Assembly (NCBI GenBank): GCA_964559755.1
Contig: CAZLHP010000003.1
Span: 10,465 to 74,464, forward strand
Length of the DNA: 64,000 nucleotides
Direction: 5' to 3'
DNA from: an uncultured Candidatus Saccharibacteria bacterium
Lineage (GTDB): Bacteria > Patescibacteriota > Minisyncoccia > Phycocordibacterales > UBA6065
The position numbers and the translations under genes were made by a program. The notes under the pieces are model-generated. The model was not told the origin of the DNA, did no database searches, and saw nothing but the letters and a program-made list of their open reading frames with translations. Of this stretch, positions 371 through 55,104 are shown one piece after another. The first letter of the stretch is position 1. Each line of letters opens with the position of its first letter.

Positions 371-371
371 G

Positions 372-442: not shown

Positions 443-511
443 AAAAACTTTACACATTCTATATTATACGAAAAAAGCGAAATATCAAACCTACCTTCCC
501 TGAAAAACTGG

Positions 512-583
512 TGTACCCGTCAGGACTCGAACCTGAAATACAACTTTCGAAGAGTTGCGTGATATCCGTTTCACTACGGGTAC
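512..583 (-). tRNA. tRNA-Arg(TCG)
   Basis: The reverse complement folds as a cloverleaf: acceptor GTACCCG/CGGGTAC, anticodon arm CAACT-CTTCGAA-AGTTG, T-loop TTCGAGT. Confidence 0.75.
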
Positions 584-587
584 ATAA

Positions 588-1265: not shown

Positions 1266-1330
1266 ATTTAGTATAAATATATCATATGGTTCTATTTCCT
1301 CAAAATGTTTTACGGTGTAGAATAAACACA

Positions 1331-2800
1331 ATGAATACGAAAAAATATACTATCCCTCCTGAAGTTTCACATGTAACCGAGACACTCCTAGCTAACGGTT
1401 TTGAAGCATACCTTGTTGGTGGATGCGTTCGAGATCTTGTTTTAAACAAAAAACCAAAAGATTGGGACGTTACGACAAACGCAATTCCGGAACAAATAAT
1501 AAATCTCTTCCCAAAGACGTTTTACGAGAACACCTACGGAACAGTAGGGGTGGTAAACGATGAGGCCACAGACAACACCCTTAAAATAGTAGAAGTTACG
1601 CCATACCGCACAGAATCCGAATATTCAGACAAAAGACGCCCAGACTCTGTTTCTTTCAGCAAAAAAATAGAAGACGACCTCAAACGAAGAGATTTCACTA
1701 TAAACGCACTCGCATTATCAAAAGACGGCTCTATTATTGACCTTTTTAACGGTCAGGATGATTTAGAGAAGGGAATAATCCGTACTGTAGGGGAGGCTCA
1801 CGCTCGTTTTTCAGAAGACGCGCTACGTATTCTTCGTGCAGTCAGAATAGCCACAGAATTGGGGTTTCACGTGGAACCAGATACCGAAAAAGCACTGGAA
1901 ACACACTCTCCACTCTTAAAACACATAGCTCTTGAACGTGTTCGCGACGAATTCACAAGAATTATCATGTCCGATAACCCTATAGCAGGAATCGAGAGAT
2001 GCCATCAGCTTGGAATACTGCGCTACATAATTCCTGAATTAGAGCAGGGAATAGGTGTTGAGCAAAACCAAGCCCACTCATTTGACGTATGGACACACCT
2101 CTTGAAAACACTCCAGCATGCCGCTTTCAAGAAATGGTCTCTTGAAATAAGGCTTTCTGCGCTACTTCATGACATAGGAAAGCCCGCAACACGCAGGTTT
2201 TCACGTGAAACAAACCAATACACATTTTACGGACATGAGGTTGTTGGTGCCAAAATGACCAAGAAAATACTAGAAAGGCTCAAGTTTTCACGTGAAACCG
2301 TAGAAAATGTAACCAAATTCGTTAGATGGCACATGTTTTTCTCAGATACTGAAGAAATTACACTTTCAGCAGTCAGACGAATGATAAACAACGTTGGCAA
2401 GGAAAGAATTTGGGATCTCATGGACCTACGGGCTTGTGACCGCATAGGAACCGGCAGGCCAAAAGAAAACCCCTACAGACTGAGAAAGTACAAGGCGATG
2501 GTTGAAGAGGCTCTCAGAGACCCTATATCAGTCGGATTACTAAAAGTAGACGGCAAAGATATTATGGAGATAACACAATCAGCGCCAGGTCCTAAAATAG
2601 GACTCATTCTAAACGCTCTCCTCGAAGAAGCCCTCGAAGATCCTCGTGTTAATACAAAAGAGTTTCTCACCAAACGTGTGCTCGAACTCTACGCAATGGA
2701 CGAAAAAGAACTTAAGAAACACGCAGTAATAGGGAAAGACAAGAAAGAAAAGGCAGAAGAAACAGAACTAAAAAAGATACGCAGTAAACATAATATTTAA
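1331..2800 (+). CDS. cca: CCA-adding tRNA nucleotidyltransferase (polyA-polymerase head plus HD domain)
   Basis: GGCVRDLVLNKKPKDWDVTTNA nucleotidyltransferase motif and an HD-domain region (LLHDIGK); ATG at 1331. Confidence 0.85.
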   Translation: MNTKKYTIPPEVSHVTETLLANGFEAYLVGGCVRDLVLNKKPKDWDVTTNAIPEQIINLFPKTFYENTYGTVGVVNDEATDNTLKIVEVTPYRTESEYSDKRRPDSVSFSKKIEDDLKRRDFTINALALSKDGSIIDLFNGQDDLEKGIIRTVGEAHARFSEDALRILRAVRIATELGFHVEPDTEKALETHSPLLKHIALERVRDEFTRIIMSDNPIAGIERCHQLGILRYIIPELEQGIGVEQNQAHSFDVWTHLLKTLQHAAFKKWSLEIRLSALLHDIGKPATRRFSRETNQYTFYGHEVVGAKMTKKILERLKFSRETVENVTKFVRWHMFFSDTEEITLSAVRRMINNVGKERIWDLMDLRACDRIGTGRPKENPYRLRKYKAMVEEALRDPISVGLLKVDGKDIMEITQSAPGPKIGLILNALLEEALEDPRVNTKEFLTKRVLELYAMDEKELKKHAVIGKDKKEKAEETELKKIRSKHNI

Positions 2801-2830
2801 AAAAACGGCTTAACAAAGCCGTTTTTTGCT
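2801..2830 (+). terminator. Rho-independent terminator after cca
   Basis: aaacggctt-aacaa-agccgtttttt hairpin plus T-run. Confidence 0.7.
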
Positions 2831-2866
2831 TTGTTTCCCGTGAAACACTTCTTTAAAACAAAAAAC

Positions 2867-3200
2867 AAACCGCCTGAGCGATGATGCTTGGGCGGTTTTG
2901 GTGCAAAGAGCCTCTTAGGGTCAACGAGTTGGCGAATCCACTAGGGAGACGGCGATAAAATAAATATATGCCGTATAGTGGGACCGAGCTCGTTGGCCAA
3001 AGGGTTCTTTAGCAAAGAATGTAAGGAGAGACCACGTGTCTCAACTTACGAGGAGTCTCTCATTGTAGCAGTGAGGAGACTATAAAAATGTGTAAAGAAC
3101 TTTTTCCGAACCGTGTCCTTTAAAAGGATCGTTACTCGGTTCTGGAATAATAATAACAACTATCAAGGACATGTAAAGGACAAGCATGTGGATAACTTAA
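2867..3200 (+). ncRNA. Candidate structured non-coding RNA(s) of unknown class in a 400 nt ORF-free gap between convergent genes
   Basis: No ORF longer than 60 aa. Nested long-range stem GGTCAACGAGTT (2919-2930) / AGCTCGTTGGCC (2987-2998) enclosing the CCACTAG/CTAGTGG and ACGGC/GCCGT helices; further perfect hairpins TTCTTT-agc-AAAGAA, GAGAC-cacgt-GTCTC and AGTCTC...GAGACT; ends at a perfect bidirectional terminator. Confidence 0.3.
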
Positions 3201-3201
3201 A

Positions 3202-3236
3202 CGGCGATGTCTTTTATAAAAGACATCGCCGTTTTT
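3202..3236. terminator. Bidirectional rho-independent terminator (serves xth and the upstream structured RNA region)
   Basis: cggcgatgtctttt-ataa-aagacatcgccg perfect hairpin flanked by an A-run and a T-run. Confidence 0.6.
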
Positions 3237-3242
3237 ATGGCT

Positions 3243-4025
3243 CTATATATTGATTTCTAGAAAAATAGGACAATGATCAGATCCGAGAACATCATGAAAT
3301 ATTTCTGCTTTTTTCACGAGAGGAGCACTCTCTTTGTTCACAAAAAAATAATCTATGCGCCAACCAATATTTCTTTCTCGTGCAAATGTTTTCATGTCCC
3401 ACCACGTGTATGCATTTTTCTTTTCTGGATATTTCAAACGAAACGTATCAACATATCCTGCTGAAATAACATCATCAATCCACGCTCTTTCGATCGGAAG
3501 AAACCCTGTAGTGTTTTGATTCTCTTTTGGTCGAGAGAGATCAATCTCTGTATGTGCAGTATTCACATCTCCCGTAAAGACAATGGCATAGCCTTTTTTC
3601 TTTAAATCCTCAATATACGCCAGAAAAGCGTCATAGTAACGCAGTTTAAAAGCGATGCGCTCCTCACCACCACCTCCATTAGGGAAATACGTGTTTATAA
3701 GTACCCATTTTGTGTTTTTACCCTTAAAAAACAAGGCTACTTGGCGACCCTCTTGATCCAATTCATCTATACCAAACCCATACTCCACCTTTTCAGGAAC
3801 GTTTTTCGTGTATACAGCAACACCACTGTAGCCCTTTTTCATTTTGGAATGATCAAAATACGATGTATATCCTTGAGGAGAGAGCACAGCCTCAGTTAAT
3901 TGATCCCTATGTGCCTTTGTCTCCTGTAAACAGAAAATATCAGGGGATTCATTTAAAATCCAATCAAAAGCACCTTTTTTAACATGGGCACGAATACCAT
4001 TCACGTTCCAGGAAATAATTTTCAT
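3243..4025 (-). CDS. xth: Exodeoxyribonuclease III (AP endonuclease)
   Basis: MKIISWNVNGIRA...CLQETK...GDVNTAHTEIDL...SDHCP ExoIII signature residues; start trimmed to the internal Met of the 309 aa ORF. Confidence 0.85.
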   Translation of the reverse strand: MKIISWNVNGIRAHVKKGAFDWILNESPDIFCLQETKAHRDQLTEAVLSPQGYTSYFDHSKMKKGYSGVAVYTKNVPEKVEYGFGIDELDQEGRQVALFFKGKNTKWVLINTYFPNGGGGEERIAFKLRYYDAFLAYIEDLKKKGYAIVFTGDVNTAHTEIDLSRPKENQNTTGFLPIERAWIDDVISAGYVDTFRLKYPEKKNAYTWWDMKTFARERNIGWRIDYFFVNKESAPLVKKAEIFHDVLGSDHCPIFLEINI

Positions 4026-4062
4026 AGACGTATAGTACCAAATTTCCCCTGTAATAAAAAAG

Positions 4063-4326
4063 CTACACCACAGGGTGTAGCTCGATTTTTTCAAGTGGTG
4101 GTGGAACCACAACCGGAATTTGTGGGCTGTCAGAATACACCACATCCTCATTATACGGAATATAACCCTCAATCCGTTCGTGAAGTAATTCTGGTGTAAC
4201 TACGACCTTAACAGGAATACAGAGTACTCCGGAAACCTTATATATCTGAATTGATGAACGGACGTACACACGAGCGTCATCAGATCGATAAAAAGGCCTT
4301 CCTACCTCGATTTCAAAGGCTTTCAT
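4063..4326 (-). CDS. Small hypothetical protein between xerC and xth
   Basis: ORF only; same strand and tight spacing suggest co-transcription. Confidence 0.3.
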   Translation of the reverse strand: MKAFEIEVGRPFYRSDDARVYVRSSIQIYKVSGVLCIPVKVVVTPELLHERIEGYIPYNEDVVYSDSPQIPVVVPPPLEKIELHPVV

Positions 4327-4371
4327 AGAACTATAATCATAAGTATCCACACAAAACGGGGGCCGGTCAAC

Positions 4372-5295
4372 TTACTTAGACTTCTTGTTGTGAAATTGCT
4401 TATGAATATTACGTAGATGTTTGTCGGTAACGTGAGTATAAATCTGAGTTGTACCAATGTGAGCATGCCCAAGAAGAGCTTGCACTGAGCGCAAATCAGC
4501 ACCATTTGATAACAAATCTGTTGCAAAACTGTGTCTAATAACGTGTGGAGTTACTTTCTTGGAAATACCAGCCTTGATCGCATAGTATTTCACGATACGC
4601 TCAATAGACCTGCGCGTAAGAGGAAAGGAGTCATCATTGCCTTTTTTTTCATATGCCAGCTTCACAAAAAGAGCATCGTCTACGTCACCACGCTTATCAA
4701 GATAGGCTTTTATTGCCTTACGAGCATCGTCTGATATAAAAACCACACGAACTTTGTCACCCTTACCCCTAATAGAAATCTCGTCGGCAGACAAATCAAT
4801 ATCGCGCGAGAGGGAACAGAGCTCAGAAACGCGCAATCCTGTAGAAAACAAAAGCTCTAAAATAGCCTTATCTCTCAAGGATTTAATGTCAGAACCGCTC
4901 GGGACAGCAAGTAAGCGGTGTAAATCATCGTTTGACATGAACTCAATGTGGCGTTCACCGACCTTTGCTAACTCAATCTTGTCTGGAGGAAGAGATGGCA
5001 CGCCTTGGCGCGCTAAATACTTGAGGAATGCCCTCAATGCTATCAGGTAATAATTCTGAGTCTTTTTTTTGAGTGTTTCCCCCGTGGCTTTGTTATTGCC
5101 CGTAGATTGCCTATTGAGCCACAGCCTGAACTCTCGTACTGACGTATCGGTAATGTCAGAAGGGTTATCTTTCTTTAAAAAAGCAATAAAACGAGTGAGG
5201 TAACGGTCGTAATTCTGTACGGTATTCAAACTACGGCCTTTTTCAATCTCAACGTATTCGAGAAATTGTTGTTTCAAAGCTTTGAGAGATGCCAT
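4372..5295 (-). CDS. xerC: Tyrosine site-specific recombinase XerC/XerD family
   Basis: N-terminal SAM-like domain and C-terminal HVIRHSFATDLLSNGADLRSVQALLGHAHIGTTQIYTHV with the catalytic R-H-R-Y pattern. Confidence 0.8.
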   Translation of the reverse strand: MASLKALKQQFLEYVEIEKGRSLNTVQNYDRYLTRFIAFLKKDNPSDITDTSVREFRLWLNRQSTGNNKATGETLKKKTQNYYLIALRAFLKYLARQGVPSLPPDKIELAKVGERHIEFMSNDDLHRLLAVPSGSDIKSLRDKAILELLFSTGLRVSELCSLSRDIDLSADEISIRGKGDKVRVVFISDDARKAIKAYLDKRGDVDDALFVKLAYEKKGNDDSFPLTRRSIERIVKYYAIKAGISKKVTPHVIRHSFATDLLSNGADLRSVQALLGHAHIGTTQIYTHVTDKHLRNIHKQFHNKKSK

Positions 5296-5385
5296 AAGGT
5301 ACAGTATACCAAAGGACCCCGTATATGACTCACGATTTAAAAAGGGCTTGCTTTTTTAAATGTTTCGTGCTACGATATTCGAGCA

Positions 5386-5652
5386 ATGCTTTCAACAACA
5401 AAGAAAAACAAAGTCGTCAAATCAGCCGCGATTCACGACAAAGATACAGGTTCATCTGAGGTTCAAATTGCAATTCTTACGTCACGTATTGAAGAACTTG
5501 CAAAACACCTCAAGAAAAACCAGAAAGATAAGCACTCACGTCGAGGACTCCTCGCTATGGTTGCTGATCGTCAGACACATATCAAGTATCTTTCAACAAA
5601 ATTTCCAAAGCGCTTTGAGGCAATAGCAAAAAAGCTCGACCTCAAGAAATAA
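5386..5652 (+). CDS. rpsO: 30S ribosomal protein S15
   Basis: 88 aa; SSEVQIAILTSRIEELAKHLKKNQKDKHSRRGLLAMVADR matches S15. Confidence 0.9.
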   Translation: MLSTTKKNKVVKSAAIHDKDTGSSEVQIAILTSRIEELAKHLKKNQKDKHSRRGLLAMVADRQTHIKYLSTKFPKRFEAIAKKLDLKK

Positions 5653-5679
5653 ATCTGACACCGAAGCTGTCAGATTTTG
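5653..5679 (+). terminator. Rho-independent terminator after rpsO
   Basis: tctgaca-ccgaagc-tgtcaga hairpin plus tttt. Confidence 0.65.
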
Positions 5680-5795
5680 GCTATAAAAGCTGAAAGTATT
5701 GTATTTTTTACGCTTCATATGTCGGTCATTTTAATAAGTTAGTTTAGTTTCTTTTAGATAAAGCGTCTCGCGCTATACCCTAAAAGCTCTTTTAC

Positions 5796-38381: not shown

Positions 38382-38421
38382 AGTAAGTGAGAATTATGAA
38401 TGTGGTATAGAGTACATTTTT

Positions 38422-45488: not shown

Positions 45489-46202
45489 ATGTTTTATTTT
45501 ATTTACGGAAACAACAAAGAGAAAACAAGGAGCAAGGCTCACGAATTGCTCGATATTATGAAGGGAAAACGCCCACAGTCTGCTTTTGTTCATGTGGACT
45601 CTGATTCGTTTTCTCCTGCGCTTGTTGATGAATTGTCGGGTAGCCAGGGTTTGTTTGATCACAAGAGTATTGTTTTTCTCGATGGTGTGATGGCAGACGC
45701 AGAGAGTAGAGATGTGCTTTTAGGCAAGGTATGTGAACTCAAAGAGTCAGATAATGCTTTTGTACTACTTGAAACGAGTGCGACAAAAGAAGTTTTGAAA
45801 AAAATAGAAAAGGGCGCCGAAAAAGTTTTTGTATTTGAAGATGAGAAAGTAAAAAAAGAAAGTTCGAGTTTGTTTTCGCTTGCAGATGCTTTGGGCAGGA
45901 GAGATAGAAAGGCTCTGTGGATGGGGGTGGTGAGCGCTTTCGAAAATGAAGTTGCTCCCGAAGAGTTGCACGGAATATTGTTTTGGCAGGTAAAAAGTAT
46001 GATTCTCGCGACGCTCACAAAAAAAGCCGAAGAGGCAGGACTCAATCCGTATGTTTTTACAAAGTCTCAGGGTTTTGCACGAAATTTTAAAAATGATGAG
46101 TTGCTTTCTTTGTCCGCAGAGTTGGTAGATATGTACCATGACGCCCATCGGGGAAAGCGTAATTTTAAATTAGCCCTCGAGCAGTTTGCTTTAGGTGTTT
46201 AA
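45489..46202 (+). CDS. holA: DNA polymerase III delta subunit-like (short)
   Basis: 237 aa; holA-like N-terminal pattern; weak call. Confidence 0.45.
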   Translation: MFYFIYGNNKEKTRSKAHELLDIMKGKRPQSAFVHVDSDSFSPALVDELSGSQGLFDHKSIVFLDGVMADAESRDVLLGKVCELKESDNAFVLLETSATKEVLKKIEKGAEKVFVFEDEKVKKESSSLFSLADALGRRDRKALWMGVVSAFENEVAPEELHGILFWQVKSMILATLTKKAEEAGLNPYVFTKSQGFARNFKNDELLSLSAELVDMYHDAHRGKRNFKLALEQFALGV

Positions 46203-46238
46203 AAAACCACGCTACTGGAGCGTGGTTTTCTCTAGCTC
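46182..46238 (+). repeat. Left copy of a perfect 57 bp direct repeat (last 21 nt of holA plus its terminator hairpin); the right copy is at 49470-49526
   Basis: cagtttgctttaggtgtttaaaaaaccacgctactggagcgtggttttctctagctc is identical at both positions. Confidence 0.8.
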
Positions 46239-46255
46239 AAAATATGTAAAAAATT

Positions 46256-46360
46256 CCCTCTGCATTTATACGGACTTGGGACCGTTTCTTTCTTGCGAAA
46301 GAAGTTGCATTACATTGTGCGAATTTTATGGTTATACTCGCAAACCCCTGAATAATCAGG
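46256..46360 (+). repeat. Roughly 100 nt repeat family: copy 1 (copy 2 at 47141-47245 is near-identical; a degenerate copy 3 is at 47959-48030)
   Basis: ccctctgcatttatacggacttgggaccgtttctttcttgcgaaagaagttgcattacattgtgcgaattttatggttatactcgcaaacccc; its internal hairpin tctttc-ttgc-gaaaga is replaced in copy 3 by the compensatory ttctct-gttta-agagaa. Confidence 0.7.
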
Positions 46361-46363
46361 GTA

Positions 46364-46705
46364 TTACTCCACAAGGTGCACAGTTCTGTACGTGCGGAAT
46401 GTATCGATCCTGGTGTTAACTAGGACCCCCTCTTTGTCAAAAGAGTCGATTTTGTCGTAATAAACGACAACCTCAACCTTGTCACCCTCCGTGGCTTTCT
46501 CCTCTTTGCCTCTATAGCTGACCACTTTTTCTGAAGGAGGCACCCGGACCGACCAGGTGTACGATCCGTCTTTTTCCGGCCGAACTTGGGTGATGATTCC
46601 AGGGAATTCCTGGTGTTCTGTGGTGCGGACCCACTTTACCTCCCTCGAACAACCACACAGAGCAATAATCGCGACGCCTACTAATAACAAGATGAATTTC
46701 TTCAT
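46364..46705 (-). CDS. Lipoprotein (113 aa)
   Basis: Signal peptide with the lipobox ALCGC. Confidence 0.5.
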   Translation of the reverse strand: MKKFILLLVGVAIIALCGCSREVKWVRTTEHQEFPGIITQVRPEKDGSYTWSVRVPPSEKVVSYRGKEEKATEGDKVEVVVYYDKIDSFDKEGVLVNTRIDTFRTYRTVHLVE

Positions 46706-46763
46706 GTTTAAATTCCTTCCTCAACTCTTGTGTCATCTCAACATGAGACGCTTAGCAAAAGTT

Positions 46764-46828
46764 TTCGGTTTCGGAAGTGAGTGCGTATAGCACGGTTGCG
46801 CGCTCGCTTCCGAAACCGAATTGTTTTT
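46764..46828 (+). other. 22 bp-arm inverted repeat (20/22 matches) followed by ttgttttt: a very stable terminator-like hairpin
   Basis: ttcggtttcggaagtgagtgcg ... cgcgctcgcttccgaaaccgaa. Confidence 0.5.
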
Positions 46829-46830
46829 AC

Positions 46831-46888
46831 AAAGAACTTCCGTTTCGTCCTTTTGGACTCATCAGTCGGAATACACATTCCGAGACAG
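46831..46888 (+). repeat. 58 nt repeat family: copy 1 (copy 2 at 47539-47597, about 90% identical)
   Basis: aaagaacttccgtttcgtccttttggactcatcagtcggaatacacattccgagacag; contains the perfect hairpin cggaat-acac-attccg. Confidence 0.65.
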
Positions 46889-47246
46889 GGAGCGTTTTTA
46901 AAGAGAACGCTCAGGGAGCCATCTAGGCTCAAACTCTTTGAAATATAAGAGAGATCGTGGCTTCGATCTTTCGGCATCTCTTATTGCCGGCAATCTATCC
47001 ATTAGATAGTGGATTCAATTGCACATCTTTAGGTTAAGATGTTGCCGTCTTCTAGACGGTCTAAACCTGCGGGCAGTTTCTAATGTCTGCCTCACCACCT
47101 TTTCCCCTCTTCTTTCGAAGTGACTTCGGGGCGGGAAGTACCCTCTGCATTTATACGGACTTGGGACCGTTTCTTTCTTGCGAAAGAAGTTGCATTACAT
47201 TGTGCGAATTTTATGGTTATACTCGCAAACCCCGGAACGATCCAGA

Positions 47247-47489
47247 TTATTTTTTCTTGGCTGACCCTCCGAATCCTCGAAGTACTACACGAAGCCCTAT
47301 CACTATCACCAGTAGTACCACACCTGTTTCAACTACAGGCCACAGGGCACGCACCAAGTTAGAGACTGCGGTCTTTCCCATATCTGGGTTAAATGACAAG
47401 GCCACAGCTAAAAGGATGCCGAATGTCCACAAGGATCTCTTCGGTGTCCCGAACAAAAAAATCAACCACTGTCTAATGTACGAGTTCAT
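47247..47489 (-). CDS. Small two-TM membrane protein (80 aa) with a KKK tail
   Basis: ORF with two clear hydrophobic helices; competes with a plus-strand ORF that spans repeat copy 2. Confidence 0.35.
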   Translation of the reverse strand: MNSYIRQWLIFLFGTPKRSLWTFGILLAVALSFNPDMGKTAVSNLVRALWPVVETGVVLLVIVIGLRVVLRGFGGSAKKK

Positions 47490-48132
47490 GTGTTAAATTC
47501 TTTTTAAAAGAAACTAACATCTGAACTCGTACTAATTTAAAGAACTTTCTGTTTCGCTCTTTTGAGCTCATCAGTCGGAATACACATTCCGAGACAGAGC
47601 ACCGAATTTAAAATTCGGAGGATTTTTGTGAGTTTTCTCTCAGAAGCACAACGTGCTTCACGTTCCGATTTAAAGCAATCTGGATAGCGTGCCATTCAAT
47701 CGGAATGGTGGCGGATTAGGTTCTGTTGCCAAGTGAATCACACTCCGCGTGCTGTATTTCTACAGGCGCAGGCAATTCGCTCCTTAGCGAACCGGGATCA
47801 CTTGGAAAAGCTCCACAGTGCAATCTGGTTGAACCAGATACACGTAGATAGCCTCCGAAGTGACCCGCCGGATGTACCGGGCCATGTTGTGAAGTAGAAA
47901 AACATTTAGCTTTTCTTTTATTTCACTTTCACCCTCACAACTAAATTCAAAGATCATTCCTCTGCATTTATATGGGCTTGGAACCATTTCTCTGTTTAAG
48001 AGAAGCTGCATTACTAATACCTGTTGACCACCACAGGTGAGGAGTGTTCTTTACGTAAAACACATAAAACGTTTTTGCCTCTTTTTACAGAACCGGACTT
48101 TGTTCGAACCTTTTTATAGGTGTTAATACCCC

Positions 48133-48477
48133 TCACGAGACAGACCAGAGGCTAAATACAAATTTCGCCCCTGCCACCTCCTCAGTGGTGTACTCGTGCC
48201 GATTTTCCAACCGGGGAAGGCCGGTAACGCCCATGACCAGCAGACGGTCACCGGGCGCGAGCGCCACGCTCGGAGCCTTACTGGGAATCTCGACTTTGAG
48301 CCCAAAGCGTTGCTCCATCACATCGATGGAGGCCTTATGGCTGGGGTTGAGACAACTAACGACGCCGTCCTCCATGACGTCTCGTGCCTGATCGACCGTA
48401 AGGTCGAGTTTGGCAATCGTGACGTTTCCGGGGAACATCGAGGGCGCTAGGCCGAAGCCGAAGTAGATCTTATTCAT
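48133..48477 (-). CDS. DUF1874-family protein (AcrIII-1 / Crn2-like cyclic tetra-adenylate ring nuclease homolog), markedly GC-rich relative to its surroundings
   Basis: 114 aa; MNKIYFGFGLAPSMF...VTIAKLD...VSCLNPSHKASI...LPRLENRH...KFVF aligns, from memory, with SIRV1 gp29 / STIV B116, including the catalytic His (..SH..) and Glu (..RLE..) positions; GC about 55-60% by eye against roughly 40% background. Confidence 0.55.
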   Translation of the reverse strand: MNKIYFGFGLAPSMFPGNVTIAKLDLTVDQARDVMEDGVVSCLNPSHKASIDVMEQRFGLKVEIPSKAPSVALAPGDRLLVMGVTGLPRLENRHEYTTEEVAGAKFVFSLWSVS

Positions 48478-48685
48478 GGTATCTATTTTCCTGTACTGGT
48501 GTATTGTTTGGGCACACCTGGTTAAAACCCGTTACTGTGCGAAATTCAACGAACTGTTACTTTGTAATTATAGCATAGTGAACAGAATTGTCAATATATT
48601 TACTTTAAAATACTCCCATGATTTACTTATATGTAAGCGTTTTAATGAAAATGGCTCTATTTAATAATTAATCTGTCACAAAGTT

Positions 48686-49456
48686 ATGACAAAAATAGAT
48701 GATAAGGTGTTAATCGACTCTGGGTTAACCAAAGAGCAAGCAAAAATTTACCTGTATCTTTTGGATGCCGGACTATCGAACGCCAAGGTAATTGCTCAAA
48801 AAACAAAGGTGGGAAGGGCACTAACATACAAAGTTATTGAACAATTGATAGAGATGGGTCTAATAGAGAAACGGGAAGACATTGCGAAAGTGGCTTTGTT
48901 TAAAGCCAGCCATCCATCTGCCATAAAAAACATTTTAGAAAAAAACAAACAAGTGGTTGATTTTGCAAATGAAAGTTTTAGCAAGTCATATGGCATGCTT
49001 TGTTCGCAATTCAATATTTTAAACGGGAAACCTCATGTAAAGTTTTTGGAAGGACTAGATGGTTTGCAAGAAATGTATAACGACATCCTTGATGAAGGTC
49101 AGGACATAAAACTTTTTCGTTCCTTTCTCGATCACAAAGATGAGCAGGTGACGAAAATATTACGTGAGCACATGAAGAAACAGGCGACAAAAGGAATACG
49201 AGTTAAAATGATCGGTCCACACAGAAATGATGTGACTCTTGAAGAGTTGAAAAAGAAAGACATCGAGCGTTTGGTTACAAGAAAAACGATTCATGAGGGC
49301 TTTCTTATTCCTTCACAGGTAATCGTTTATGGTAATAAAGTTTCGATAACTGATTTTAAAAATTTAATAATAACAATCATTGAAAATGAATGCGTAAAGG
49401 ATTCTTTTGAAAGAATGTTCGATTATACATTTGATAACCTAAAGGATACTTATTAA
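48686..49456 (+). CDS. TrmB-family transcriptional regulator
   Basis: N-terminal TrmB-type wHTH LTKEQAKIYLYLLDAGLSNAKVIAQKTKVGRALTYKVIEQLIEMGLIEK plus a C-terminal effector-like domain. Confidence 0.55.
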   Translation: MTKIDDKVLIDSGLTKEQAKIYLYLLDAGLSNAKVIAQKTKVGRALTYKVIEQLIEMGLIEKREDIAKVALFKASHPSAIKNILEKNKQVVDFANESFSKSYGMLCSQFNILNGKPHVKFLEGLDGLQEMYNDILDEGQDIKLFRSFLDHKDEQVTKILREHMKKQATKGIRVKMIGPHRNDVTLEELKKKDIERLVTRKTIHEGFLIPSQVIVYGNKVSITDFKNLIITIIENECVKDSFERMFDYTFDNLKDTY

Positions 49457-49469
49457 TCTGTTTGCTGGA

Positions 49470-49526
49470 ACAGTTTGCTTTAGGTGTTTAAAAAACCACG
49501 CTACTGGAGCGTGGTTTTCTCTAGCT
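49470..49526 (+). repeat. Right copy of the 57 bp direct repeat (see 46182-46238)
   Basis: Identical 57-mer, immediately after the trmB-like stop. Confidence 0.8.
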
Positions 49527-49939
49527 CCAGCTTGAGAAGGAGTTGGAGTTGTTCGTTTGGTTTTTCTTCGTGCGTGTTGTGGCAATGACAGGTGCATCTC
49601 CAGCCACCGTATACACCCGGGGGAGAACTTTGACCAATTGCGCAGAGCGAGTGGTCACCTTTTTCACATTCAGGAGTGATTCGTAGGAATACCATAGTTA
49701 GGGGAGCATTCTTTCCTAAGGGTACTTGAGGCGGAGAGGAAGTCAACGGAGAGGGAGGGGTAGCTGGATATCGATCGTTACGGGGTCAGAATCAGTGTTG
49801 GAATCTCCCGCGCCTCTCAACTCGCCGTCGCTCGTTTCGGGCTGGGCACCAGCTCGCATGATTTTTTACTAAAAATCATTGGCTCCGCTGTTCGATTCCA
49901 AACGCGAGCAAAATTGTTTGCTCGCTCTAGCCACACAAA

Positions 49940-49966
49940 AACCGCCCGAAGGCGGTTTGTTTTTTG
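49940..49966 (-). terminator. Terminator downstream of the minus-strand tRNA-Lys
   Basis: aaaccgcc-ttcg-ggcggttt followed by a T-run on the minus strand. Confidence 0.6.
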
Positions 49967-50039
49967 TGCGGCTAGTTGGAATCGAACCAACGACCCTCTG
50001 CTTAAAAGGCAGGTGCTCTACCGACTGAGCTATAGCCGC
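49967..50039 (-). tRNA. tRNA-Lys(TTT)
   Basis: Reverse complement GCGGCTATAGCTCAGTCGGTAGAGCACCTGCCTTTTAAGCAGAGGGTCGTTGGTTCGATTCCAACTAGCCGCA; anticodon loop CTTTTAA. Confidence 0.8.
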
Positions 50040-50135
50040 ATTTCGCTTGTTTATAACCTGATTATTCAACAAATTGCGATGGAATCGATAATACCACGAA
50101 ATTGCCAAATGACAATTTCTCGCTAGTATTGTCTC

Positions 50136-50615
50136 ATGTCTTCATCTTTTCAAAAATGTATTCTCCTGCACAACATTCGTTCGGTCTACAATGTAGGTGC
50201 GATATTCCGTACAGCTGATGCTCTAGGCGTCTCAAAAATATATCTTTCTGGGTATACGCCAACGCCCTTGGATAGGTTTGGTGTTCCGCGAAATGATTTT
50301 GCAAAATCAGCCCTCGGTGCTGAGAAAAGTGTTCCATGGGTTTTTGTAAAAAGCCCTAGCGCGCTTCTCAAAACCCTTTCGAAAGAAGGCTTTTCTATTT
50401 GTGCTGTAGAGCAGGACACTCGTTCTATTGATTACAAAAAAGCCCCACGCAAAAATAAAATGATTGTTTTGTTTGGTAATGAGGTGCGCGGGCTTTCTCC
50501 AACACTTCTCTCAAAGGCGGATGTGGTTATAGAAATACCGATGCGCGGTACAAAAGAGTCGCTCAATGTTTCTGTTTCGGCAGGTATCGTACTTTTTAAA
50601 CTTTTTGATAGGTAA
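50136..50615 (+). CDS. SpoU/TrmH-family RNA 2'-O-methyltransferase
   Basis: SPOUT motifs LFGNEVRGLS and IPMRGTKESLNVSVSAGIVLF. Confidence 0.75.
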   Translation: MSSSFQKCILLHNIRSVYNVGAIFRTADALGVSKIYLSGYTPTPLDRFGVPRNDFAKSALGAEKSVPWVFVKSPSALLKTLSKEGFSICAVEQDTRSIDYKKAPRKNKMIVLFGNEVRGLSPTLLSKADVVIEIPMRGTKESLNVSVSAGIVLFKLFDR

Positions 50616-50627
50616 GCTTCGTATTTC

Positions 50628-51578
50628 CTAATACGTTATTGCATCAAGTACTGTATTTTTACTATCAAGTATTTTTATGATCTCTCTTTTTTCTTTCCAG
50701 AGTTCGGTTGCGTTGCTCAAAAATAGCCTCCATTCATTACGAAAGAAACTTGTATCGTTTTTGTGAGATGCAACGCATCCATTGTAGTTGAGTGTGGTTT
50801 GTACAAAAGCGCTACATTCTTTTGAGAGGGTTGAGGGTATATTTTTTGTATAAATAGAACAGCGAGGTATTTTTTTTACAAAATCGGTACATGCTTCTTC
50901 ATCAATTCCTGAAGCCTTGAGTTCGTCGAGGGGTTCCGGACATTCTTGTCGTAGTTCAGGTGTGTATGTTTGGAATTGACCGAGGTATCCACTACAGATG
51001 TTTACCTTGAAGGACTCTCCAATAGGGGATCTGCCTGTACTGACAAAGGCACGCTCACCTGGAACAAGAGATATTTTTTCATTTTTTGATGCAGAGCCGA
51101 GAATGGGCAGTGACACTCCTTGAGGAATGACAATTTCTTTGTTGGTGACTGTGCTTTTGATTTTAATTCCTGTGAGTGTAAACGATCCCGTGTTTTTTGT
51201 GCTCGCGACAATACGAAGATACTCTTTTTGAGGGTCAGACAATTGCGCTCCACTGAAGCCGTCAATCACGAGAGGTCTGAGCGAGAGAGGGGATTTGTGT
51301 ATGAGTTCGGCCTCTTTTATTTTTTCTGCAAAAGCAGAAATATCCTCCTCAATAGTGTCGAGGTTTATCGCGTTTTTTGGGAGTCTTAATTCTGTTTTTC
51401 CGTTGTTATAAAGTGAGTTGATGTAGCCACCGCCGTATGCTTGCCCAGAGTCGATAGGGGCAAGTGGTCTTAGGAAAACTCCTTGTCGTGCTATTTCACG
51501 TTCTGGTCCTCCAGTCAAAAACCACGCAACTCCAAGTCCTACAAAAGCCCATATAAGCCATTTAGCAGTATCATCCAT
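50628..51578 (-). CDS. Secreted hypothetical protein with a Cys-rich C-terminal part
   Basis: ORF with a signal/TM N-terminus WLIWAFVGLGVAWFL. Confidence 0.45.
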   Translation of the reverse strand: MDDTAKWLIWAFVGLGVAWFLTGGPEREIARQGVFLRPLAPIDSGQAYGGGYINSLYNNGKTELRLPKNAINLDTIEEDISAFAEKIKEAELIHKSPLSLRPLVIDGFSGAQLSDPQKEYLRIVASTKNTGSFTLTGIKIKSTVTNKEIVIPQGVSLPILGSASKNEKISLVPGERAFVSTGRSPIGESFKVNICSGYLGQFQTYTPELRQECPEPLDELKASGIDEEACTDFVKKIPRCSIYTKNIPSTLSKECSAFVQTTLNYNGCVASHKNDTSFFRNEWRLFLSNATELWKEKREIIKILDSKNTVLDAITY

Positions 51579-51622
51579 ACTCGTTATGATAAAACAGAAT
51601 TACATAACAGGGAACTAGTGGT

Positions 51623-52549
51623 TTAGGCTCTCGTCTGGTGTATTGGGCAAAAATGAGCGCTCCTTCCTCCGATTTTTATTTTTGTGAGTATTCCTGTACA
51701 CCCACGTTTACTGCAGGGGAGGCCATCTTTTTGATATGCTTTGTGCTTTTTTTGAAAGGTACCACGCTCGCCAAAAATATTTCGGTAGTCAGACATGGAA
51801 TCTCCCCCTAGGTCTATGCCTGTACGAAGTAGTGTACGCATAGCCTTAAACATTTTTTGTAGAGTTTTTTCTGAGAGCGTATTTGTTTTGGTGAGGGGGT
51901 GAGTGTCGACTAACCAGAGTATTTCGTCAGAATAGATATTCCCAACGCCTGCAACAACAGTATGATCCATAAGCACTGTTTTTACAGGTTTGTTTTTTCC
52001 CAGAGTCAGACGTTCTTTGAATACTTTCTCGGTAAAATTTTTGTCGAGGGGTTCTGGGCCACTTGTAGAGAGGTGAGGAGAAGAGGCAAGGTTTCGTGTG
52101 GGGATGAGGGTCACTTTTGCAAATTTTCTCATGTCAGATAAGACAAGGTGATGACCGTTTGAAAGACAAAGCACGAGACGCACATGTCTATTAAAAGGAT
52201 CAGCAAGTGCGATATTGTCTACAGCACTCCACACTCCTTTGTTGTTTTTATATTTTCCATAGAGGAGATGTCCCGTCATTTTCATATGCACGAGAATGGT
52301 TTGCTCAGATGGTTTTCCCTGAGGGAGGGAGAGGTGAATGAGTACATTTTTTGCCCGTCTTGTTGCGTGTAGTATCCGCGCCCCACGAATTGTTTTTTTG
52401 AACAGAGAAAAGTAAGAAGGGTTTTTTATAGTACCCTCGTGCATTTTTAGTGGACTCGCGTAGTTTGTCCACACGTCAGTAATGATGAGATTTTTTACGG
52501 TGGCGTTTACTCCATCGACCGTTGTTTGTACTTCGGGCAGTTCTGGCAT
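51623..52549 (-). CDS. mutM: Formamidopyrimidine-DNA glycosylase (Fpg/MutM/Nei family)
   Basis: N-terminal MPELPEV, H2TH region and a C-terminal zinc finger. Confidence 0.85.
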   Translation of the reverse strand: MPELPEVQTTVDGVNATVKNLIITDVWTNYASPLKMHEGTIKNPSYFSLFKKTIRGARILHATRRAKNVLIHLSLPQGKPSEQTILVHMKMTGHLLYGKYKNNKGVWSAVDNIALADPFNRHVRLVLCLSNGHHLVLSDMRKFAKVTLIPTRNLASSPHLSTSGPEPLDKNFTEKVFKERLTLGKNKPVKTVLMDHTVVAGVGNIYSDEILWLVDTHPLTKTNTLSEKTLQKMFKAMRTLLRTGIDLGGDSMSDYRNIFGERGTFQKKHKAYQKDGLPCSKRGCTGILTKIKIGGRSAHFCPIHQTRA

Positions 52550-52624
52550 ACCCTACAAACTACGTTTGTTATTTTGTATTGTCAAAAAAACACCCTTCCG
52601 ATTGTATCGGAAGGGTGAATATTA

Positions 52625-53122
52625 TTACGTAACAATAATGAAGTCTTTTGTTTGCAGGAATACCGTCCCTGTAAAATCAGTGTTTCGAAACTGATTTACG
52701 AGTAGGTGTGAAAGGGCGAGTTCAACACCTTTTGAATCGATAACGATTCCTCCCAAGTCTTTTTTTACTGGAATGATTACCCAGCCACTGAAAGGTGAAA
52801 GCCCCATGAATTCTTTGTATCGCTGATCTGCTGTAGGGTTCTTTTGAACCACACAGAGAAACTCAGTCCATGCGAGCCTGTCTTTCTCGACGAGTTTCTT
52901 GATGAACTCTTGCTCCGCTTTTTCACAGTCCTCTTCTGAGGCATGATCAAGCATAGCGTCGAGTTTTGGTGGTAGGAGGGGTAGGGAGGGCAATCCCTTT
53001 GCTCCCTGAGGGTTTTTGAGGTACTCGATGAAATCATCGAGACTCCTGAGAAGGAGTGCCCATTCAAACTCAGAACAAATCGTTTTCATAGATAGTATTT
53101 GAGGTTTCTGTTCCTCTATCAC
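52625..53122 (-). CDS. Hypothetical protein (165 aa)
   Basis: ORF only. Confidence 0.4.
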   Translation of the reverse strand: MIEEQKPQILSMKTICSEFEWALLLRSLDDFIEYLKNPQGAKGLPSLPLLPPKLDAMLDHASEEDCEKAEQEFIKKLVEKDRLAWTEFLCVVQKNPTADQRYKEFMGLSPFSGWVIIPVKKDLGGIVIDSKGVELALSHLLVNQFRNTDFTGTVFLQTKDFIIVT

Positions 53123-53137
53123 AATACTATATTACTA

Positions 53138-54403
53138 TCACTTTGTCAATTTCTTGTGTAATTCCTCTTTGGCCACGAGCGCGTCGCTCCAAGGGGTTTT
53201 TGTGCCGTTAGGCCCCATGATGTAGGGGTCAGTGCCTTTGCCGGTGATGAGTACAGAATCTCCTGTGTTGGCCAAAGAGAGAGCGTGCGCTATTGCTTCG
53301 CGCCTATCCATGATAATGGTTGGTTTTTTGCTCATCTCTTGTGCCATGTCGCGCACTATTTTTTCAGGGATATCGTCATAGGGGTCTTCATTAGTAAGAA
53401 TTATTTCATCACATTCTTTTTCTGCGATATGTGCCATCTCATTTCTTTTCCACACATCTCGTCCTCCACCTGTGTTTCCTAGCACACAAATACGGCGAGT
53501 GTTTTGAAATACGTCGTAGAGTTTTTGGAGAGAGTCTGGCGTGTGCGCATAGTCCACAATGACAGTGAAGTCTTGTCCTTCTTCAATTCTCTCTACACGT
53601 CCGCGTATGCCAGAGAATTTTTCCAGAGCTTTTTTAATGGTTTCGATAGAGATCAACTGTGTTTGTGCGTACGTGATTGCTCCTAGGCAGTTGTATATAT
53701 TAAACACACCAGAGAGGGGTGAGGTTATAGGTGTGTCTCGAACAGTCATTGTGAATCCTTGTTTCTGGAGAGTGTAAGGTTCTGCTTGGGAGAGGGAGTA
53801 AGTGTGTTTTTCTGGAACACGAAGAGAGAGAAATCGGTGCGCTTCTTTGTCGTCCTTATTTATAATGAGAGATCTTTTTTCTTTGCGTGATATTTCAACT
53901 TGTTTTGCGATTGCTACTTTTGCTGCCACATAGTTTTCGTACGAACCATGAGATTCAATATGTTCTGGTGCGAGGTTTGTAAAGATGAGTGAGTCGAGCT
54001 GTATGTGTTTGTGCCGATAGAGTTCTGCGCCCTGAGAAGTCATTTCTAGTATTGCGTAGTTACAGCCAGCATTGACTGCTTTACGTAAAAAAGACTGAAC
54101 GAAAAATCGTCCCGGCATAGACATTTTGTAGAGATTATCTGTCGATTCGGCATCTATTTTAAAACGGATGGTATTTGAAACTGCTGTTTTGAAACCAGCT
54201 TCTTCTAGAATTGCATTCAGTATTTCCGTAACAGAACTTTTACCTTTTGTGCCTGTAACACCTATGACGGTTATATGGCGAGAGGGGAAGCGGTAGAGTA
54301 CTGCGCCTATGAGCGCCATTACTCTGTGGTAGGGCTTTTGAATGATTTTAAAAAGCCTTTTCGGAATGTATTTTTTTATTTTAAAAAGAATCGTGTCTAG
54401 CAT
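53138..54403 (-). CDS. Mur ligase family protein (MurE/MurF-like; ends with a TGA stop)
   Basis: P-loop VIGVTGTKGKSSVTEIL plus the Mur ligase middle and C-terminal domain pattern. Confidence 0.7.
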   Translation of the reverse strand: MLDTILFKIKKYIPKRLFKIIQKPYHRVMALIGAVLYRFPSRHITVIGVTGTKGKSSVTEILNAILEEAGFKTAVSNTIRFKIDAESTDNLYKMSMPGRFFVQSFLRKAVNAGCNYAILEMTSQGAELYRHKHIQLDSLIFTNLAPEHIESHGSYENYVAAKVAIAKQVEISRKEKRSLIINKDDKEAHRFLSLRVPEKHTYSLSQAEPYTLQKQGFTMTVRDTPITSPLSGVFNIYNCLGAITYAQTQLISIETIKKALEKFSGIRGRVERIEEGQDFTVIVDYAHTPDSLQKLYDVFQNTRRICVLGNTGGGRDVWKRNEMAHIAEKECDEIILTNEDPYDDIPEKIVRDMAQEMSKKPTIIMDRREAIAHALSLANTGDSVLITGKGTDPYIMGPNGTKTPWSDALVAKEELHKKLTK

Positions 54404-54412
54404 AAGGGCTTT

Positions 54413-54979
54413 TTATTTTCCTAGTATTTTTAGAGCTTTTTTTACACGGTCACTGGTGCTCGTGTGACTCGTATCAACTTGTTTGAGCGCCTCGCGTGCG
54501 TCTTTTTGTGTAAAACCAAGTGACTTGAGGGCCTCGATAGCATCAACCTCATCGCGGAGAGAAACTCCATCCGATTCTTCAGCGCCAAACTTTCCTTTGA
54601 GTTCCAAAACTATTTTGTCTGCAAGTTTTTTACCAACGCCAGAAACCTGCGTGAGGTGAGAAGTGTCTCCTGTTGAAACTGCCTTACGAATATTTTGAAC
54701 ACTCGATACGTTGAGTATACCGAGAGCTGTTTTTGGTCCGATGCCTGATATAGAGATGAGGAGTTCAAAAAAATCCCGTTCATCCTTGTCGATAAAACCG
54801 TAGAGGGTTTGGGAATCTTCACGTACTGCGTGGTGTGTCCACAAACTAAGGGGAGAACCTTCTTTTGCTTTGTCGACAATGCGCCCTGTCGTCCAAACGG
54901 TATAACCAACGCCTTGTATATCGAGTACAAGTGAGCGTTCGTTTGTATCAAGCACTGTTCCTGAAAGATGGGATATCAT
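54413..54979 (-). CDS. ruvA: Holliday junction DNA helicase RuvA
   Basis: MISHLSGTVLD...LDIQGVGYTV; HhH motifs. Confidence 0.85.
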   Translation of the reverse strand: MISHLSGTVLDTNERSLVLDIQGVGYTVWTTGRIVDKAKEGSPLSLWTHHAVREDSQTLYGFIDKDERDFFELLISISGIGPKTALGILNVSSVQNIRKAVSTGDTSHLTQVSGVGKKLADKIVLELKGKFGAEESDGVSLRDEVDAIEALKSLGFTQKDAREALKQVDTSHTSTSDRVKKALKILGK

Positions 54980-55104
54980 GGTTTTGATTATAGAACATAA
55001 AAGACTCTACGTAGAGCTTTGGTTACAGGTTTTTTGGTCACAAGGCGTTTTTTCCTGTAATGGGTTGCCTTTTTTGGTTCTTTCTGTTAATGTAACTGCC
55101 ACAT

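Follow-up and report, generated by a model that had tools for sequence, protein, structure and literature searches.

The subject of this report is a 3.3 kb block of DNA, here called the island, that lies between the gene holA and a small gene, orf64, in a 64 kb window of contig CAZLHP010000003.1 from a bacterium of the candidate phyla radiation (CPR). Our comparisons show that the island is a real strain-variable insertion/deletion unit bounded exactly by two 57-bp direct repeats (57-mers), and on this point a preliminary description of the same DNA was largely right. We think it likely that the island is an accessory module inserted at the terminator shared by holA and orf64, that its array of small genes forms one transcription unit cut by ribozymes, and that the variants found among strains arose by recombination between its repeats. 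The array is headed by a gene for a DUF1874-like protein, and a divergent gene encodes a TrmB-family regulator. What had been described as 1.5 kb of repeat-rich non-coding DNA consists of five ribozymes and two structured spacers. Throughout, coordinates are positions in the 64 kb window, and L-numbers (e.g. L091) denote the related contigs and loci that were compared. The host is near Candidatus Taylorbacteria, and its PolA is at most 66% identical to those of the best 80 species representatives.

Repeats, junctions and the empty site

Two exact copies of the 57-mer, both on the plus strand and without a mismatch, occur in the window, where the chance expectation from 100 shuffles is zero. 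The left copy lies where the preliminary description had placed it, while the right one occupies 49471-49527, one base beyond the 49470-49526 given there. Leftward the likeness between the copies continues weakly for six bases, to 63 nt at 97% identity; the right border is sharp. The reported overlap with the 3' end of holA and with a terminator hairpin is borne out, as the left copy holds the final six sense codons and the stop of holA, followed by a hairpin with T-runs on both strands (46203-46229). Read on the opposite strand, it also holds a copy of the 3' end of orf64, eight sense codons and the stop (27 nt). The right copy serves as the terminator of the TrmB gene on the plus strand and as the true 3' end and stop of orf64 on the minus strand. 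What is duplicated, then, is a stretch of 57 bp in which holA and orf64, which are convergent, overlap at their 3' ends and share a bidirectional terminator. An insertion at this terminator, between the two genes, would have duplicated the 57 bp; with the hairpin and the two 3' ends all inside the duplicate, neither gene and neither transcription stop is lost.

We take orf64 to be a real gene because strain contigs show a single difference in its 195-nt open reading frame (ORF) compared with nine, frame-breaking indels included, in the 85 nt before its ATG. Protein searches found no homologues of it, and when further empty-site contigs were sought by looking up orf64, the protein was absent from the records.

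The empty site that the preliminary description proposed as a check on the insertion, with holA followed by one 57-mer and the tRNA-Lys flank, was found in contig L091 of metagenome assembly GCA_020049755.1. This contig runs from the holA 3' end through a single 57-mer to orf64, tRNA-Lys and SpoU and has no island; its nucleotides 1-126 match window 46113-46238 at 100%, and its nucleotides 64-5688 match 49465-55088 at 98.8%. The same assembly contains an occupied contig, L081, that is identical to the window. L091 starts 126 nt before the two alleles diverge, and this start may well be a k=127 graph branch point at which both alleles coexist. Contigs from other samples and assemblers cross both junctions of the island, the left one in two cases and the right one in three (Table 1). 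These findings exclude both an assembly artefact and an ancient fixed duplication. The empty allele could equally reflect a RecA-type deletion between the 57-mers.

Related genomes bear on the same question. The order polA, holA, SpoU and a gene for a 316-aa protein is kept in roughly half of 80 related polA loci, and these syntenic species, about 40 in number, lack the marker genes and the twisters of the island at this locus. A DUF1874 homologue or a twister ribozyme was found at none of the 80 polA loci. From holA to SpoU the gap is 520-880 bp in many relatives, compared with 3934 bp here, or 608 bp once the island is subtracted. ARAGORN placed a tRNA-Lys(ttt) in this gap in eight of ten scanned loci and called the anticodon tta in the remaining two. 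These 'tRNA-Stop (tta)' calls, at L021 13678-13751 and L006 14311-14384, stand where other species have tRNA-Lys(ttt), and they are probably an anticodon-register effect (position 35 vs 34). Other relatives carry 2-7 kb of unrelated cargo in the holA-tRNA-Lys-SpoU interval, and since this cargo differs among several of them (Table 1), we regard the interval as a hot spot.

Ribozymes and the predicted transcription unit

Five self-cleaving ribozymes were recognised in the island by an Rfam E-value scan, all on the minus strand: three of the twister-P1 class (E ~1e-12) and two type III hammerheads (E ~1e-7). Read along the minus strand, the order is promoter, DUF1874 ORF, twister 3, spacer B, hammerhead 2, membrane ORF, twister 2, spacer A, hammerhead 1, signal-peptide ORF, twister 1, 13 nt, and the terminator of the left 57-mer.

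All three twister matches cover the full-length Rfam model, and all three copies have the core (UAA at the cleavage site, the GGUCCCAAG-CC loop, UAAA and GAGG), helices P1, P2 and P4, and two pseudoknots. At paired positions twister 3 departs from twisters 1 and 2 only by compensatory changes, which affect two helices and a single pair in each pseudoknot. In a covariation set of only four sequences (the three window copies and the L107 homologue), 94.4% of cells are paired as against 32-47% in slid controls, and nine pairs, both pseudoknots included, show double changes. The two hammerheads have an intact catalytic core, CUGAUGA...GAAA, and an intact GUC triplet; they form three stems with stem III at the open end, and they differ from each other in stem II through compensatory changes. 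Across the hammerhead family, which comprises 44 distinct sequences, 98.6% of cells are paired (24-51% in slid controls) and 13 of 15 pairs show double changes; the homologous hammerhead of L093 scores 52.5 bits in Rfam, above the gathering score. The structural evidence for the five ribozymes is strong despite their sub-threshold scores, and self-cleavage is predicted for them.

The two spacers matched no Rfam family. A 40-nt 3' untranslated region (UTR) and the twister that follows it make up a 107-nt module that is 95% identical between the cassettes of twisters 1 and 2, and the hammerhead module, of about 74 nt, is 85-90% identical between cassettes; the ORFs that these modules enclose are unrelated.

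Given this layout, the sigma-70 promoter would drive a single minus-strand RNA of about 2.4 kb across the whole array, with TrmB transcribed divergently, and the five ribozymes would cut the array RNA co-transcriptionally. Three of the predicted products are monocistronic mRNAs (about 548, 396 and 572 nt); the others are two structured non-coding RNAs (420 and 313 nt) and a tail of roughly 110 nt. Spacer A would be freed between the cuts of twister 2 and hammerhead 1, and spacer B between those of twister 3 and hammerhead 2. As the ends made by the ribozymes would be a 5'-OH and a 2',3'-cyclic phosphate, each cassette mRNA would start from a 5'-OH and the hammerhead body and finish in a short 3' UTR that bears a cyclic phosphate. 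Cleavage would then uncouple the stability and translation of the individual cassettes. It is from sequence that we infer both the single transcription unit and self-cleavage in vivo.

Two hairpins were seen within the cassettes. One, at 47478-47532 on the minus strand, has 27-nt arms that are 85% complementary and encloses the AUG of the 80-aa membrane ORF; the other, at 46757-46827, has 29-nt arms and lies between hammerhead 1 and the lipoprotein ORF. Both may control translation or stability after cleavage. A third hammerhead, considered at 48125-48147, was rejected: the stretch has no CUGAUGA core and overlaps the DUF1874 stop, and the adjacent 60 nt are a conserved 3' block. This block of about 60 nt after the DUF1874 stop (window 48066-48125, minus strand) is 80-92% conserved in L123 (440-488), L093 (9868-9926) and L099 (3202-3261), where it also follows ORFs, and it is possibly a shared 3' UTR element.

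Table 1. Coordinates of the island, its flanks and features of related loci (window positions unless an L-number is given; MFE, minimum free energy).
Feature	Position	Strand	Evidence or remark
holA (DNA polymerase III delta), duplicated 3' end	45489..46202	+	Pfam DNA_pol3_delta_C and NCBIfam holA, both below cut-offs; polA-holA synteny conserved in 80 relatives
Left 57-bp direct repeat (attL-like)	46182..46238		Exact match; crossed by independent contigs L100 (GOS scaffold) and L199
Twister-P1 ribozyme 1, 3' of lipoprotein cassette	46252..46316	-	RF03160 62.3 bits, E=1.4e-12; custom model 95 bits; predicted cut 46312/46311
Cassette ORF, 113 aa, N-terminal signal/lipoprotein-like peptide, ORFan	46364..46705	-	No Pfam match
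Hammerhead type III ribozyme 1, lipoprotein cassette 5' UTR	46837..46891	-	RF00008 42.9 bits, E=6.5e-7; custom model 83.6 bits; predicted cut 46884/46883
Spacer A, 245 nt, structured, non-coding	46892..47136	-	MFE -80.3 kcal/mol, z=-4.55, 0/200 shuffles equally stable
Twister-P1 ribozyme 2, 3' of membrane cassette	47137..47201	-	Rfam 60.7 bits, E=4e-12; predicted cut 47197/47196
Cassette ORF, 80 aa, small hydrophobic/membrane protein	47247..47489	-	No Pfam or PHROG match
Hammerhead type III ribozyme 2, membrane cassette 5' UTR	47546..47600	-	Rfam 44.3 bits, E=2.6e-7; custom model 87.6 bits; predicted cut 47593/47592
Spacer B, 353 nt, highly structured, non-coding	47601..47953	-	MFE -128 kcal/mol, z=-6.55, 0/100 shuffles equally stable
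Twister-P1 ribozyme 3, 3' of DUF1874 gene	47954..48017	-	Rfam 60.8 bits, E=3.7e-12; predicted cut 48013/48012
DUF1874/AcrIII-1/Crn2-fold protein, 114 aa, first array gene	48133..48477	-	Pfam PF08960, AFV3-109 profile match, AF2/Foldseek
Sigma-70-type promoter (TTGACA, 16 nt, TG, TATAAT)	48567..48594	-	12/12 consensus, extended -10; ~90 nt before DUF1874 start; consensus match only
TrmB-family winged-helix regulator, 256 aa	48686..49456	+	Pfam PF01978 E=3.3e-11; divergent from array promoter
Right 57-bp direct repeat (attR-like)	49471..49527		Exact match; crossed by L084, L184, L185
orf64, Cys/His-rich, 64 aa, beyond island	49501..49695	-	Last 27 nt within 57-mer; convergent with holA in empty allele
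tRNA-Lys(ttt)	49966..50039	-	ARAGORN/Rfam scans; conserved holA neighbour in clade, marks insertion hot spot
yebC/ruvB junction, 40 bp, empty in window	38382..38421		Several relatives carry TrmB/DUF1874/array module there
Cargo of holA-SpoU interval in L074	L074 13327-19004		Large serine recombinase, reverse transcriptase, Schlafen/AlbA_2 ATPase
Cargo of holA-SpoU interval in L006	L006 14460-17639		DUF3800 and TrmB homologue
Cargo of holA-SpoU interval in L057	L057 16126-17064		LAGLIDADG protein overlapping tRNA
Array hairpin, examples	L099 1252-5589; L093 8974-9020, 10141-10187; L095 8457-10275

Strain variants

In contigs from other samples, the array that follows the common TrmB/DUF1874 head takes one of four states. 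V2 is the arrangement of the window (L100, L081). V1 lacks the membrane cassette and has DUF1874, a twister, spacer A, hammerhead 1 and the lipoprotein ORF (L101, L186, L187, L197), while V1', seen in L102, lacks the lipoprotein cassette and consists of the membrane cassette, a twister and the 57-mer. V0, in L189, goes from DUF1874 through a twister to the 57-mer with no cassette at all. Every variant junction falls within a twister copy. With the empty site, these variants form a nested series in which each member could be explained by a deletion between direct repeats of the window arrangement: recombination between the ribozyme-module repeats, or between the 57-mers, would lead to the loss of one cassette, of both, or of the whole island.

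The lead gene varies in a different way. When window 48133-48477 was compared with L101 and L184-L189, the strain with the P0001 allele had a DUF1874 ORF only 84.6% identical to that of the window, as against 98.6-98.8% for TrmB, about 97% for the intergenic sequence and 94% for the 3' UTR. The lead DUF1874 gene is thus itself mosaic, amid close flanks, which suggests allelic replacement or diversifying selection. Horizontal transfer of cassettes was considered and dropped; the lipoprotein cassette is 99.8-100% identical across backbones, but with TrmB at 98.6-98.8% the comparison is not decisive.

The regulator, the lead gene and the cassettes

The contents listed for the block in the preliminary description (DUF1874, TrmB, a lipoprotein and a small membrane protein) were all confirmed by ORF and Pfam analysis. 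Many close homologues of the 114-aa lead protein have precomputed PF08960 matches, and a profile built from 42 homologues found AFV3-109 in the PDB (E=1.1e-3) with a conserved GH histidine aligned. The AF2 model of the protein has a pLDDT of 91.9, and in a Foldseek search of the PDB its top 17 matches are all AcrIII-1/B116/AFV3-109/Csx1-Crn2 structures (2j6b, 6scf, 8y7f, 8y7g, 8y6z, 2x4i and 2j85 among the entries). The first 16 have probability 1.0, TM 0.59-0.75 and E <= 1e-3, and the 17th (8y6z) has 0.96 and TM 0.56; the probability of the next match is 0.04. His47 (H47) is invariant in the 42 homologues. In SIRV1 gp29, His47 is the absolutely conserved catalytic residue and the general acid of AcrIII-1 (bioRxiv 10.1101/778746). 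Judged by its modelled structure, the 114-aa protein is a distant member of the cyclic tetra-adenylate (cA4) ring-nuclease fold with the catalytic histidine, and it is a candidate ring nuclease. The protein may have ring-nuclease activity, and the TrmB protein, whose gene ends 14 nt short of the right 57-mer, may control the array.

The cassette proteins gave no Pfam and no meaningful PHROG matches. For the 113-aa protein the sole match among 5.8 billion clusters is a variant that is 99% identical to it.

The same module in related genomes

The DUF1874-like protein has at least 168 homologues; 120 of these were listed, at 56-91% identity. Among the few that come with a source name, the labels are Taylorbacteria, Patescibacteria or just 'bacterium'; some of the homologues are on contigs as long as 681 kb. 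A divergent TrmB gene stands upstream of DUF1874 in 24 of the 61 loci with sufficient upstream sequence, and in the contexts that were fetched small ORFs without Pfam matches form an array downstream. In L095, L099, L106, L111 and L119 the module lies between yebC and ruvB. Because that junction is filled elsewhere and empty here, the module occupies different chromosomal sites across lineages.

Ribozymes recur in these loci. Using a hammerhead covariance model built from the two window copies and one relative, we searched 754 kb of DUF1874 loci and found 57 hammerheads, every one of them on the DUF1874 strand. The non-redundant set numbers 45, in 22 of 67 loci, mainly among closer relatives. 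The hammerheads start a median of 453 nt past the DUF1874 stop, and from their ends to the next ATG ORF the median is 64 nt; the latter distance is at most 120 nt for 29 of 42 as compared with 30% of random positions. Twisters, sought by regular expression and covariance model in 80 polA-syntenic and 86 DUF1874 loci, were found only in the window and in L107, where the twister likewise follows directly after the DUF1874 gene. Since twisters are confined to these two, we take the twister to be the rare partner and the hammerhead the common one. Rfam E-value scans of ten related loci found no pistol, hatchet, twister-sister or HDV-like ribozymes.

Other repeated elements were seen in related arrays. 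A conserved, imperfect hairpin (CACTTTATTGAGTTCA...GGATTCATAGAGT) recurs in consecutive intergenic regions in 17 of 78 DUF1874 loci and is absent from the window (examples in Table 1). It has 37 copies on the array strand and one on the other strand, compared with two in 1.3 Mb of control loci, and it has no match in Rfam. This hairpin may be the published 'DUF1874 motif', or it may be an RNase III-type processing site that replaces a ribozyme. L099 has in addition a 65-nt repeat (CGTAATTCT-hairpin-GCGCCTGACGAGCGGAAACTGTTGG) at 302-366, 870-934 and 4698-4762, which contains a hammerhead-like CUGACGAG...GAAAC string without stem II; one copy abuts a hammerhead match at 365-430. The more distant DUF1874 loci L139, L140, L144 and L161 have intergenic direct repeats of 45-120 nt on both sides of the gene. 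An Rfam E-value scan of L139, L144 and L161 gave no ribozyme match, and the arrays of all four use motifs not yet described.

Origin of the island

Several findings weigh against the reading of the island as an inserted module that is transcribed as one unit and cut by ribozymes. The empty site is seen in one contig, L091, which reaches only 63 nt to the left of the repeat. Each of the five ribozymes falls a little short of its Rfam gathering score, at 60.7-62.3 bits compared with 67.2 for twister-P1 (RF03160) and at 42.9-44.3 bits compared with 48.5 for hammerhead III (RF00008), and therefore they are by score not formal members of these families; stem III of the window's hammerheads is also short, at 4-5 bp. 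The 114-aa protein scores 18.8 bits (E=0.0019) against Pfam PF08960, where the gathering score is 26 bits, and no type III CRISPR or cyclic oligoadenylate genes were noticed among the ORFs examined, in a window that was not screened for them. No long direct repeats flank the module at its other sites, the repeats detected there being intergenic motifs within the arrays, so the module does not in general duplicate its target. Finally, the attR arm on the TrmB side in L085 and L184 is a holA 3' end that has diverged (7 of 24 positions differ, and there is an indel), beside a 33-nt exact core, and this suits an arm borne by the element (attP) better than a plain target duplication. Point mutation does not account for so much divergence, given that TrmB is still 98.8-99.5% identical. 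The alternatives are that the island has long had a holA-like, attP-style arm of its own, or that the perfect 57-mer of the window is a product of gene conversion.

The attP-like look of this diverged arm and its exact core is one of the observations that speak for classical site-specific integration, an origin that we hold to be plausible but only tentatively so. The island would then be an integrase-less element with its own holA 3' end as attP, inserted and excised by a tyrosine or serine integrase that is encoded elsewhere in the genome or on a helper, and the 57-mers would be attL and attR. Such an origin fits a repeat that consists of a gene 3' end and terminator with sharp outer borders, as well as the existence of an empty site and the presence of the module at differing sites among genomes; the hot spot, moreover, elsewhere holds a large serine recombinase, a reverse transcriptase and DUF3800. 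It is because of the gene-3'-end repeat, the attP-like arm and the hot spot that an integrase acting in trans seems a plausible source of the insertion. However, the island has no integrase, as the preliminary description had stated, and the sole recombinase in the 64 kb window, at 4372-5295, is Xer-type. No contig with a circular junction (TrmB end, 57-mer, twister 1 side) was among those retrieved, and the yebC/ruvB and other sites of the module are without flanking repeats. The 57-mer core has no match in JGI metagenome contigs or in IMG/VR, which therefore lend no support to a free element or to a generic module.

A more speculative idea, which we consider unlikely, is that the DUF1874-led arrays of Taylorbacteria-like CPR bacteria are an RNA-punctuated counterpart of integrons. 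Hypervariable ORFan effector cassettes and structured-RNA cassettes would have their borders marked by ribozymes, the cleaved pieces would be circularised or re-joined, and the ribozyme sites would also be the points of loss, gain and exchange; the spacers would be functional non-coding cassettes of a new RNA class. If this were true, the cassettes could have anti-defence or host-interaction functions of an episymbiont.

Quite improbable, in our judgement, is an integron-like system proper, in which the ribozyme modules or the array hairpin serve as attC-like DNA sites for a tyrosine recombinase and RNA cleavage is secondary. The array does consist of same-orientation, promoterless ORFan cassettes behind one strong promoter, these are present or absent among strains with junctions in a repeated module, and the hairpin of related arrays stands in consecutive intergenic regions with its bias of 37 to 1 by strand; the same idea was raised for the 'DUF1874 motif' by Weinberg 2017 (PMC5737381). 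Yet no integron-type integrase lies beside the array here or in the loci examined, and all observed variants are simple deletions between direct repeats. In addition, the repeats are genuine ribozyme folds, and their covariation, which extends to the pseudoknots, is a sign of selection acting on the RNA.

The preliminary description had spoken of an integrative element or a provirus remnant. A discrete insertion is upheld by L091 and the junction contigs, whereas a provirus is not, there being no meaningful PHROG match and no DNA match in phage, plasmid or IMG/VR collections, and a decayed prophage or plasmid remnant is now very improbable and largely refuted. Viruses and mobile elements commonly carry genes of the DUF1874/AcrIII-1 family (bioRxiv 10.1101/778746), the GC content is atypical, and clustered hammerheads are often linked to prophages (PMC3088659). 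However, no PHROG family matched at E <0.005 and none of known function, blastn against 50,697 phage and 72,556 plasmid records found nothing, and IMG/VR gave no DNA match. Only seven distant DUF1874 relatives occur in the 2.9 million IMG/VR contigs, where the exact twister and hammerhead strings also have no match, and the homologues lie on long chromosomal contigs amid housekeeping genes as a conserved cellular module. That the duplication is an assembly artefact is refuted, and that the 57-mer is a generic terminator module repeated by chance is hardly credible: the short-read contigs L082, L083, L085 and L090 do break inside the 57-mer, so that assemblers see a repeat, but the junctions are crossed in other samples and by other assemblers, a GOS scaffold included, and the sequence has two copies in 64 kb and none in the JGI metagenome or IMG/VR collections.

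Relation to known systems

Read as a strain-variable module whose RNA is cut by ribozymes, the island most recalls the clustered ribozymes found around variable single genes in mobile or prophage regions of bacteria, among them the hammerheads of Agrobacterium, Azorhizobium and Clostridium, whose cleavage was shown both in vitro and in vivo (Perreault et al. 2011, PMC3088659). Twister and hammerhead ribozymes are known to occupy common gene neighbourhoods for unknown reasons, and the exact ribozyme class is viewed as unimportant (PMC6765202). As in these reports (PMC3088659, PMC6765202), the ribozymes of the island lie on one strand, bracket single variable genes and belong to two unrelated classes, with processing of a polycistron as the proposed role. 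The anti-defence gene ardA is among the flanked genes of that literature, and the lead gene of the island has an anti-CRISPR fold. Unlike the clustered ribozymes of prophages, the island sits in a CPR chromosome with no integrase nearby and alternates a 5' hammerhead with a 3' twister across long structured spacers. It also goes beyond the published clusters in having a conserved lead pair of TrmB and DUF1874, an empty site and nested cassette deletions. The 'DUF1874 motif' (Weinberg et al. 2017, PMC5737381), which has been discussed as an unusual attC, likewise alternates motif and ORF near DUF1874 without an integrase at the head, whereas the recurring elements of the window are recognised ribozymes.

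Like genomic islands at the 3' ends of genes and tRNAs, the block has att-type direct repeats that rebuild the target 3' end, an empty allele and a hot spot next to a tRNA; unlike them, it has no integrase or mobility genes, it rebuilds the 3' end of a second, convergent gene as well, and its cargo is a small regulated array. With integrons it shares one promoter, small and mostly ORFan cassettes of the same orientation, structured repeats between them and a content that varies among close strains. It differs in having neither intI nor attI, in a head made of TrmB, promoter and DUF1874 that is found in related loci too, and in repeats that by eye are without the attC R''/R' consensus and are instead ribozyme folds under constraint at the RNA level. 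The acr-aca operons and the AcrIII-1/Crn2 genes offer another likeness, namely a small AcrIII-1-fold gene with an invariant histidine beside a helix-turn-helix regulator and followed by small variable genes. Here, though, the regulator is of the 256-aa TrmB type and divergent, and the family is conserved over many CPR chromosomes. In retrozymes and viroid-like circular RNAs, as in the island, segments bracketed by ribozymes would have a 5'-OH at one end and a 2',3'-cyclic phosphate at the other, and an RtcB-type ligase could make circles of them, but in the island there is no reverse transcriptase, nothing like a long terminal repeat or a target-site feature, and no run of identical units in tandem.

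Apart from the 2017 motif note, we found no literature that links these ribozymes to CPR bacteria or to DUF1874 genes. The ribozyme classes were known before, as was the fact that they cluster around variable genes and share neighbourhoods. New are the CPR host, the regular bracketing by 5' hammerhead and 3' twister with structured spacers, the head of TrmB and an AcrIII-1-fold protein, the hammerhead-punctuated arrays across many metagenomes, and the population snapshot. Why hammerheads and twisters share neighbourhoods has been open since 2011-2014 (PMC3088659, PMC6765202), and the island is a compact and delimited natural test case for this question, with one promoter, one regulator, five ribozymes and natural variants that are short of one, two or all cassettes. 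Its direct predictions are six RNA fragments, five cleavage coordinates and His47-dependent cleavage of cA4. For annotation, the lesson is that what looks like 'repeat-rich non-coding DNA' in a small island may turn out to be ribozyme punctuation.

The right flank of the island

The tRNA-Lys to the right of the island and the elevated GC content between them were both as the preliminary description had them: the tRNA gene is at 49966-50039 on the minus strand, and GC is 0.47-0.53 over 49450-50050 and 0.54-0.56 over the DUF1874 gene, both higher than the 0.40-0.43 or so of the surroundings. The flank at 49528-49965 was considered as a structured RNA and rejected (z=-1.9, no Rfam match); it holds the conserved 64-aa ORF. 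Within it, window 49879-49905 on the plus strand (GCTGTTCGATTCCAAAC) resembles the T-arm of the neighbouring tRNA-Lys, which lies on the opposite strand, and could be a tRNA fragment left by an older integration in the hot spot. In a comparison of L184 1-171 with window 49773-49966, this strain, which is about 94% identical to the window, has unrelated sequence beyond the upstream region of orf64. Hence the stretch from orf64 to tRNA-Lys is strain-variable as well.

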